This document shows positions 27,495 through 29,795 of a stretch of 64,000 nucleotides of DNA, piece after piece. Position 1 is the first letter of the stretch; each line of letters opens with the position of its first letter. The notes beneath the pieces are model-generated. The model did no database searches, had not been told where the DNA came from, and worked only from the letters and a program-made list of their open reading frames with translations. Location of the stretch: the NCBI GenBank assembly GCA_042565955.1, contig JBHORG010000003.1:33328-97327 (forward strand), in the 5' to 3' direction. The position numbers and the translations under genes are program-made. The stretch is from Thermoproteota archaeon (GTDB lineage: Archaea > Thermoproteota > Bathyarchaeia > Bathyarchaeales > Bathyarchaeaceae).

Positions 27495-28082
27495 ATGACT
27501 TTTGAATCAAGTAAAAATCTTAGTGCTGTCGGAGCTTTATTGATAGTTATTGGTGCTGTCTTAGGTTTCGTAGTGTCTTTTTCAGGTATTCTGTCATTAA
27601 TCGGTATAATTCTGTTGCTTATTGGATTAAAGGGGCTTGCGGATTTCTACAAAGAAGAGGGTATATTCAACAATGCGCTTTATTCCATACTTATTGCTGT
27701 GGTGGGATGTGTAGTTGGTGTCGGAATCATAGCGGTTACAGCTGTTTCGGCTTTGGCTGATGAGGGCATCGATTGGGCTAATGTAGACGATTGGGTTAAT
27801 TATGGAACTGATGTATTTACAGATTTTGACTTTAGTCCAATATTGGATCTGTTAGTTGCATTATTGGTTGGTCTAATAATTTTCTATGTAGTCTTGATCA
27901 TTTCAATGTATTTCCTTAGGAAGTCAATGAATCAATTATCAACAAAGTCTGGAATCGGTTTGTTTGGTACCGCTGGGATACTAGTGCTTATAGGCGCAGT
28001 AATACCCGTTATAGGGTTACTGCTAATTTGGATTGGTTTTGTACTAGCTACAGTAGCATTATTCCAAATGAAAAAAGAGTAA
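27495..28082 (+). CDS. multi-pass membrane protein (DUF996-like)
   Basis: Paralog of the element-borne ORF 17864-18493 but lacking its zinc ribbon. Confidence 0.65.
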   Translation: MTFESSKNLSAVGALLIVIGAVLGFVVSFSGILSLIGIILLLIGLKGLADFYKEEGIFNNALYSILIAVVGCVVGVGIIAVTAVSALADEGIDWANVDDWVNYGTDVFTDFDFSPILDLLVALLVGLIIFYVVLIISMYFLRKSMNQLSTKSGIGLFGTAGILVLIGAVIPVIGLLLIWIGFVLATVALFQMKKE

Positions 28083-28589
28083 GCTAGGGCATAATCTAGT
28101 CTATTGAATAGACAATAAAAAACCAACACACCCTTTTTTTATCTTCCATTCGCGATTACTATAATACATTGTTTCACAGTCACACGATATGTTTCATTTA
28201 GAACGTAATTACTCGTAATCGCATCCATTAGATCCACAACTAGACCATCTTCTTACAGTTCCCCCATGTGTTAAGTTAAAGCTAAAGTAGACGTGTTTAT
28301 CCACATTGCCAACTTGCCATAATATTCTGACTTTTCATCTTTAATATTGTTAATATTTTTCTTGCTGTCTCGTTCCTACGAATAGAAATTATTTTCATCT
28401 CTATGTTGAAGATTATTTTATTCAAAATATCGTTTGTTTGATTCATCGAAAGTTACCTCTAATATAATGATGATTTGTAAACAGAGGTAACATTTCTAAC
28501 TGGTTGCACATCCTGAATCTTAAAGTGCAATGTAGTATTAACTGTCTAAACTAAACCTTTTTAAATGATTTATTTTATCCCTTCAATTT

Positions 28590-28656
28590 GCGGGTAGGTG
28601 GTGCCTCCCACCCGTTCCGCATTAAAAATCCCGGAGTCGGGAGGTAAAAAGATAGA
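28590..28656 (+). promoter_or_regulatory. candidate structured 5' leader that sequesters the SD sequence
   Basis: Hairpin GCGG-(GGTGG-TGCCTC-CCACC)-CCGC. Its loop CCTCCC (28604-28609) is complementary to GGGAGG (28639-28644), 12 nt upstream of the ATG. A competing local hairpin TCCC-GGAGTC-GGGA is also possible. Confidence 0.35.
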
Positions 28657-29187
28657 ATGAAAACAAATGAAGTAAGTTTAACGATAGTTTTTACAAGTTT
28701 GTATGCAGTTTTAGTGATTGCTTTAGGAACAATGGGTCAAGGTCCTGTGCAATTGCGTGTTGCTGATTGCCTGATTCCATTAGCAGCTTTGTTTGGTTGG
28801 CCCGTAATCGTTGGTGTAACTGCTGGGTGCTTTGTGGGTAACTCATTCGTTTGGTTGGGTACAGAGGACGTTGTCTTTGGGACAATCGCTAACTTGATCG
28901 CAGCAACCATAGTTTTTCTTCTTAGAAAACGACAATTGTTGGCTTGCACTGTTGGTTCTTTGCCGATTGGATTTATTGTGGGAAGCTACCTTTGGTTATT
29001 CTTCGATTTCCAAGTAGACATCTTTGGATTACTCATTCCATCATGGGCTGCTATGATTGCGAGCGTTACACTAAGCACTTTAATTGTGATGTCGGGAATA
29101 GGTTATGCTATACTCAATGCATTGAGCGGTTCGAGCTTTATCCAAGTGTTCAAATCTTGGGGAATAAAAGTATACAATAAAGAATAA
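28657..29187 (+). CDS. QueT-like queuosine/archaeosine precursor transporter
   Basis: About 5 TM segments and a GPVQLRVADCLIPL segment resembling the QueT signature (G.IQFRVSE). Confidence 0.65.
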   Translation: MKTNEVSLTIVFTSLYAVLVIALGTMGQGPVQLRVADCLIPLAALFGWPVIVGVTAGCFVGNSFVWLGTEDVVFGTIANLIAATIVFLLRKRQLLACTVGSLPIGFIVGSYLWLFFDFQVDIFGLLIPSWAAMIASVTLSTLIVMSGIGYAILNALSGSSFIQVFKSWGIKVYNKE

Positions 29188-29300: not shown

Positions 29301-29795
29301 ATGGATCAAGAAACAGTTTTTGGGTTAGCAGAACCATTTTTGAAGAGAAACGATTTTGGAATACCCCATACCAGAATAGTCTTTGATATCGCAACCAAAA
29401 ACTTTGAGATTCCCCAAGAATTGGAAGAATTGATCTTTTGTTCTATAATCATGCATGATATAGGCGGAAAGAGCATCAAAAAGCAATATGAGGATGGTCC
29501 AAAAATAGCTGCGTCTATTCTACAAAAACTGGGATATGACCAGAATTTTGTTGATCAAGTTTGCGAAATTGTACGCACTCACCATGATCATCCTGATAAT
29601 CAGTCTTTGGCTTTCAAGTTATTGTCAGATTCAGACAAGCTTGCAATGTTTTCTAGTGAAGAGTTTTCTTATTACAACTCGCAACCTGATTTTTACTGGA
29701 ACCAAATAGTTAACCTAATCTATCAAGAGCATGCAAGAGATTTAGCAAAGGAACTGTTGCATCAAAGAAAAGCTCATACAGCACAAAAATACTAA
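29301..29795 (+). CDS. HD-domain protein
   Basis: IIMHDIGG and VRTHHDHPD motifs. Confidence 0.7.
   Translation: MDQETVFGLAEPFLKRNDFGIPHTRIVFDIATKNFEIPQELEELIFCSIIMHDIGGKSIKKQYEDGPKIAASILQKLGYDQNFVDQVCEIVRTHHDHPDNQSLAFKLLSDSDKLAMFSSEEFSYYNSQPDFYWNQIVNLIYQEHARDLAKELLHQRKAHTAQKY

Follow-up and report, generated by a model that had tools for sequence, protein, structure and literature searches.

We propose that the leader preceding the queT gene of this Bathyarchaeia genome is a cis-acting translational OFF riboswitch of an undescribed class, predicted to respond to preQ0 or a close 7-deazaguanine; we put the probability of this reading at roughly 0.7. The leader RNA is 60 bases long, and its pseudoknot element spans 57 nt (28589–28645) upstream of the QueT gene. 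Coordinates refer to the 64,000-nt stretch of DNA analyzed, hereafter the window, and the features of the leader all lie on the forward strand. Since the element stands only before genes for the uptake or synthesis of preQ0, an undescribed archaeal riboswitch class is the most likely explanation. The original prediction had suggested a riboswitch-like pseudoknot at this position, and that candidate reading, made from sequence, was supported wherever it could be tested computationally. The element is not a chance fold, and it is the comparative evidence, not the folding energy, that is decisive here.

The element contains a GC-rich hairpin. Its outer stem, P1, is formed by GCGG (28590–28593) and CCGC (28617–28620) and is lengthened by the pair U28589–A28621. 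Its 5′ strand, U-GCGG, thus occupies 28589–28593, and its 3′ strand, CCGC-A, occupies 28617–28621, as supported by covariation and RNAalifold. The 5′ strand is followed by J1, a conserved unpaired GURR (GUAG in this leader; 28594–28597) whose bases are candidate pocket residues and whose G28594 may pair with U28616. An inner hairpin (28597–28612; −6.5 kcal/mol) is formed by GGUGG (28597–28601) and CCACC (28608–28612) around the loop UGCCUC and contains part of the anti-Shine–Dalgarno (anti-SD) strand. The hexamer CCUCCC (28604–28609) is fully complementary to GGGAGG (28639–28644), the sole Shine–Dalgarno sequence (SD) ahead of the ATG at 28657. This hexamer belongs to the pseudoknot 5′ strand, G-CCUCCC (the anti-SD) and then ACCC (28603–28613), which has its partner at 28633–28645 (duplex energy, −19.1 kcal/mol). 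The original prediction described the leader sequence correctly throughout. It had also assigned CCUCCC to a hairpin loop; the complementarity to GGGAGG holds, but the hexamer does not lie wholly in the loop, because its last two Cs sit in the inner stem. The pseudoknot and the inner hairpin, which have positions 28608–28609 in common, are therefore mutually exclusive.

Between the pseudoknot strand and P1 lies L2, the trinucleotide GUU (28614–28616), also a candidate for the pocket on the basis of its conservation. Downstream of P1, L3 (28622–28632) consists of the A-rich linker UUAAAAA (28622–28628) and a conserved YCCC; its putative role is modelled on that of the A-rich L3 in preQ1-I. The pseudoknot 3′ strand, GG-A-GU-C-GGGAGGU (28633–28645), is assigned from covariation and includes the SD, GGAGGU (28640–28645). 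The spacing of 12 nt from the SD to the ATG in the window is long. The minimum-free-energy fold of the leader combines P1, the inner hairpin, and a local hairpin, UCCC(G)/(C)GGGA (28629–28642; −6.8 kcal/mol), over the first SD bases. This fold has an energy of −24.1 kcal/mol, with z = −1.9 for the leader and −2.9 for the hairpin, values that are mildly unusual and, as energies by themselves, not decisive.

QueT was searched in 40 relatives, and the DNA upstream of it was examined. The same core was present ahead of queT orthologues in all 30 fetched loci, which represent the own genus and 11 other families of the order, and the flanks diverge. The family core reads GCGGGURRGUGG..CCUCC(C)ACCCGUUCCGC, followed by an A-rich stretch, YCCCGG, and then (G)GGAGG. 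A covariance model, R1, was built from 84 sequences. It recovers a single copy in the own genome (84.5 bits) and the motif in 93 of 151 sampled Bathyarchaeia genomes (72 of the 95 high-quality ones), as well as in 16 genomes outside Bathyarchaeia in a sample of the phylum Thermoproteota.

A DNA-pattern scan over one genome per GTDB species gave at least about 60 archaeal matches. Those listed are mostly from Bathyarchaeia, including Ca. Bathyarchaeum tardum and Ca. Bathycorpusculum; among them there are also one Methanomethylicota MAG, one Promethearchaeota (Asgard) MAG, and several labelled Nitrososphaerota. Scored with R1, the archaeal pattern matches reach 42–91 bits, compared with at most 20 bits for the bacterial ones. 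A wider range extending to high-GC bacteria (Streptomyces and others) was considered and rejected: with scores of 20 bits or less, a GC-rich composition, and no SD, these matches are due to chance.

The distribution has some irregularities within Bathyarchaeia. In two families, f20 and f21, queT is present in all 12 sampled genomes and R1 finds no match; their queT leaders may be different or very divergent. A divergent clade, L191–L195 (family f17 and G033), has CCCC-AAAA in place of CCCCGG and GCU or GAU in place of GUU. It keeps P1 and the covarying pseudoknot and scores 27–31 bits with R1. One further copy (L190, G154:C281) has a mutated P1 and core and lies ahead of a QueT-like frame, in a genome with two other intact copies. 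It appears to be a degenerate remnant of the motif.

The pairings were examined in alignment A2, which comprises 100 distinct copies aligned to the model. Since the model contained no pseudoknot, that pairing did not shape the alignment. Compensatory changes across these copies occur in three features: the outer stem P1, the inner hairpin, and the anti-SD:SD pseudoknot. The closing pair of P1 takes five forms in A2 (GC 70, AU 13, UA 7, GU 5, CG 2), and the four inner pairs are invariant there. The top pair is flipped from G-C to C-G in L169, L171, L175, and L176 (GGCGC/GCGCC vs GGCGG/CCGCC). The pseudoknot partners tested were columns 23/85, 28–31/84–81, 37/80, and 38/78, picked after the alignment had been viewed. 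When P1 and the pseudoknot are counted jointly, 94.7% of cells are paired. Double changes amount to 118 cells, compared with 41.9 in shuffles that ignore relatedness among the copies, and none of 500 shuffles was as high. The covariation score was 0.300, as against 0.078 or less with slid partners.

The clearest signal for the pseudoknot is a U-A register shift, CCUCCC/GGGAGG versus CCUCC/GGAGG. Pair 31/81 is CG in 60 copies, UA in 29, and UG in 8, and pair 30/82 is UA in 56 and CG in 30. Pair 38/78 is CG in 82 copies and UA in 7 (CCUCCU/AGGAGG), and the flanking pair 23/85 occurs as G·U, G-C, A-U, or U-A. The helix can be extended by pairing ACCC with GG-N-GU, up to 11–12 bp; in the extension, pair 40/75 is CG in 73 copies (UA 5, UG 2, AU 1), pair 42/71 is CG in 95 (UG 4), and pair 41/72 is invariant. 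Divergent copies, some of them outside A2, carry GCCCUCC/GGAGGGC, GCCCCC/GGGGGC, or UCCCCC/GGGGGA. Many core positions are invariant and thus uninformative on pairing, and a mutual-information scan of all column pairs found nothing covarying beyond P1 and the pseudoknot. The original prediction depended on the pairing being conserved and covarying in orthologous leaders. Both were found, and the SD-sequestering pairing that it described covaries over about 100 distinct copies.

Two leaders, L186:101-174 and L189:1501-1572, have no SD. Their pairing is UCCGA/UCGGA, directly upstream of the start codon, and the UCGGA strand lies from a few nucleotides (L189) to about a dozen (L186) before the likely start. 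In these two leaders, the switch may mask the start region instead of an SD.

The inner hairpin (columns 17–20/37–40) is 95.8% paired and shows changes from U-A to C-G or G-C, in counts that lean towards this hairpin because it is part of the model. RNAalifold independently predicts three of its four pairs and also pairs G13·U45. In L072, L098, and L067, the hairpin is disrupted with no compensating change, and the two-state model described below may therefore not hold everywhere.

Other local pairings were tried and rejected as family features. The original prediction had pointed to a competing local hairpin over the SD. It is present in this sequence but is not conserved across the family: the corresponding CCC/GGG helix (columns 67–70 with 78–82) is 75.3% paired versus 74.1% in shuffles, and its outer pair is unpaired in half of the cells. 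An anti-P1 pairing between CGGG of the P1 5′ strand and the downstream CCCCGG involves segments that are invariant in A2, and it is lost in the GCGC-type P1 variants. In L072, L098, and L067, changes that disrupt the pairing of G19–G21 with the linker CCC are not compensated.

All 100 copies have the G and U of J1, and the two bases after them are nearly always purines (AG, GA, AA, or GG). L2 is GUU in all 100 A2 copies, and only its middle base varies (GCU, GAU) in the divergent clade. The AAA of the linker (columns 64–66 of A2) and the CCC vary little or not at all. GURR, GUU, and AAAYCCC are thus the conserved single strands, and the sequence contains no U-rich strand. Such invariance of unpaired bases is typical of a ligand pocket, and we regard these residues as a candidate pocket.

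The position of the element within the transcript is suggested by 110 aligned upstream regions. Relative to the first G of GCGG, they are A-rich from −41 to −36 and T/A-rich from −35 to −28, and at −4, about 26 nt from the TATA box, a purine is favored (71%), preceded by a pyrimidine. For the queT leader, the composition points to an archaeal promoter at 28549–28565, with an A-rich BRE-like stretch and then the TATA-like TTTTTAAA (28558–28565). The purine at −4 and the TATA spacing predict a transcription start zone at 28585–28588, with the start near 28585. With a start about 4 nt upstream of P1, the motif would open the mRNA and lie entirely within its 5′ UTR. The original prediction could not have accommodated a start downstream of 28620; the promoter geometry of the 110 copies puts the predicted start ahead of the hairpin, by about 4 nt. 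SD-like words are about 4-fold enriched before the long ORFs of the window, which indicates that SD-led initiation is used here. Upstream of the queT promoter, a DUF996 membrane protein gene (27495–28082, +) is followed by a very AT-rich spacer of about 470 bp (28083–28548), in which a search of Rfam over 28400–28760 with E up to 10 found nothing.

The proposed regulated gene (28657–29187, +) encodes a protein of 176 amino acids. Its identity, given as QueT-like in the original prediction, is confirmed by a match to PF06177 (QueT) at 82.7 bits, against a cutoff of 33.7. No other QueT match occurs in the genome (2.04 Mb, 95.6% complete). Nearly all copies of the motif have QueT as the downstream gene. 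The exceptions are L076, with QueE and then QueC; L064, with QueE; and L124, with QueC and then QueT. Every named gene behind the motif makes or imports preQ0. The association with 7-deazaguanine metabolism is thus stronger than could be seen from the single leader on which the original prediction was based, since the leader also precedes queE and queC.

At two further loci, a membrane protein of 230–280 amino acids is encoded directly behind the leader, replacing QueT (L176:1570-2265, +; L101:5727-6557, −). It has no match in Pfam or NCBIfam. The two proteins are 32% identical to each other (E = 7e-31) and share a GGPGFITL motif. In the Atlas, both lie nearest to clusters annotated as ECF transporter S component (0.94), which we take as a lead only. 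The protein may be an as yet unnamed transporter of 7-deazaguanines.

The own genome encodes arcTGT (C41:3743-4714, 279 bits). Searches for QueC, QueD (PTPS), and QueE gave only weak superfamily matches, and none of the three was detected in this genome, which is 95.6% complete. The organism would accordingly depend on preQ0 uptake, and QueT is probably the sole source of preQ0 in this genome. Located 113 nt behind queT on the same strand is an HD-domain gene (29301–29795, +), whose position is kept in 12 loci of genus relatives at 64–76% identity. It may be co-transcribed with queT.

We propose the following two-state mechanism for the leader. The mRNA would begin about 4 nt before P1, a stem of 5–6 bp (N-GCGG/CCGC-N′) that encloses a loop carrying the anti-SD, CCUCC[C], and then ACCC. 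The part after P1 comprises the A-rich linker, the invariant CCC, and the tail GG-N-GU-N-GGGAGGU with the SD. In the ON state, the inner hairpin (GUGG/CCAC) would lock the anti-SD and leave the SD free. In the OFF state, loop and tail would form an H-type pseudoknot of up to 11–12 bp in which the SD is buried. The invariant GU after P1, the GUU before the P1 3′ strand, and the AAA...CCC of the linker would come together where P1 joins the pseudoknot helix and may form a pocket there for a guanine-like base. Binding of the ligand would then stabilize the OFF fold. This direction would fit a product that represses the genes for its own uptake and synthesis.

The element was compared with the known riboswitch classes. 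A scan of the window with Rfam at the gathering score gave no preQ1 match, only tRNAs and noise. With E up to 10, the leader and 19 divergent loci matched neither preQ1-I, II, or III nor any other family. The three preQ1 covariance models were those that the original prediction had named for comparison; scanning them gave no match, and neither did the other Rfam models.

In its layout, the element is most like preQ1-I (RF00522, types 1–3). Both are H-type pseudoknots with a P1 of 5 bp topped by G/C, loop bases that pair with a 3′ tail over the SD, a U that directly follows the P1 5′ strand region, and an A-rich L3 after the P1 3′ strand. They also share an association with queuosine/7-deazaguanine genes, including queT, and a translational OFF logic (PMC11625349), which for the element is a prediction. 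However, the element measures 57 nt, whereas the preQ1-I aptamer has about 34 nt. GUU precedes its P1 3′ strand, in place of the AC/UC with the specificity cytosine that defines preQ1-I (PMC11625349). Its L3 is longer and ends in the invariant CCC, its pseudoknot helix reaches 11–12 bp and covers the whole SD, it has an inner hairpin that competes with the pseudoknot, and it is archaeal.

The preQ1-II class (RF01054; the COG4708/queT motif of Streptococcaceae and Lactobacillales) likewise precedes queT. As in the element, the full SD is Watson–Crick paired to an anti-SD, and the pseudoknot helix lies beside the presumed pocket; control is purely translational, as proposed here, and the size class is similar (PMC11625349). 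Nevertheless, the embedded P4 hairpin of its HLout fold is not supported in the element, in which the only candidate, CCC/GGG, fails. The element has a C-rich tract instead of a U-rich strand for U-A-U triples, the lack of a 5′ P1 hairpin is listed as a further difference, and the hosts are archaea rather than Bacillota. With preQ1-III (RF02680), the element shares the presumed ligand family and a pseudoknotted aptamer. Class III is much larger, and its SD lies in a separate helix more than 40 Å from the pocket (PMC11625349), whereas the SD of the element is inside the core pseudoknot. Classes II and III have ten pocket nucleotides in common, among them those of the U-A-U major-groove triples; the element, with GURR, GUU, and AAAYCCC as its conserved single strands, has no U-rich strand. 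From these differing features and the lack of an Rfam match, we regard the element as one that would work like a preQ1-type SD-sequestering pseudoknot and do not assign it to class I, II, or III.

Our literature search found no published description of the element, and the word "archaea" is absent from a 2024 review of preQ1 riboswitches. In surveys, archaeal riboswitches are mainly TPP and fluoride, with rare FMN, Mg2+-I, and guanidine-II, all of them shared with bacteria (PMC5473149, 2017).

A riboswitch of the same fold might recognize a ligand other than preQ0, such as preQ1, the archaeosine base, queuine, 7-carboxy-7-deazaguanine (CDG), guanine, or another purine. The gene association indicates a pathway and not a single compound, known preQ1 riboswitches bind preQ0 and preQ1 alike (PMC11625349), and the substrate of QueT is without experimental verification (PMC5372724). 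However, the free base inserted by arcTGT in archaeosine synthesis is preQ0 (PMC5372724), and QueE and QueC, whose genes also stand behind the leader, make preQ0. We consider a different ligand unlikely.

It is also conceivable that the SD-masking fold is stabilized by a protein or a tRNA, with the leader serving as an operator for an RNA-binding regulator, arcTGT, or unmodified tRNA. Protein-mediated feedback employs conserved structured leaders with masked SDs as well, and the invariant bases could equally form a protein-binding site. Such an operator nevertheless appears quite improbable: no candidate regulator gene is consistently linked to the motif, the neighbors vary except for queT and the HD-domain gene within the genus, and a small pseudoknot element that accompanies genes of three enzyme or transporter families, all from a single small-molecule pathway, bears the usual signature of a riboswitch. 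The simplest alternative would be a constitutive translational attenuator or an RNA thermometer, giving low or temperature-dependent translation of queT with no metabolite sensing. SD masking by itself can tune expression, and the folding energies are just modestly below those of shuffles. Simple masking would require neither the roughly 20 invariant unpaired bases nor an identical core before queT, queE, and queC in several classes, and we regard this alternative as very unlikely. The metabolite-binding riboswitch remains our preferred reading. The leader shares with riboswitches in general a conserved, covarying structure in the predicted 5′ UTR and an association with genes of one pathway, here those for QueT, QueE, and QueC.

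We lean, if only slightly, towards the view that the element represents a riboswitch class native to archaea and widespread among them, the first of its kind. As such, it would be a fourth structural solution to 7-deazaguanine recognition, tuned to preQ0 rather than preQ1, with a C-rich or GUU pocket unlike the known alpha, beta, and gamma binding modes, and it would mark further unnamed preQ0 transporters, for example the S-component-like family of L176 and L101. If this is correct, an archaea-only class that occurs in about 60% of the sampled Bathyarchaeia would alter the picture of riboswitches as rare in this domain. It would offer a new fold beside the preQ1 riboswitch family, useful for comparing recognition strategies, and a small ligand-controlled translational switch for archaeal genetics. 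The motif also points to unannotated 7-deazapurine transporters. It would provide a first handle on how archaea control the salvage and synthesis of the archaeosine precursor. In the organism studied here, whose genome is apparently without queC, queD, and queE, the element would control the only identified route to preQ0.
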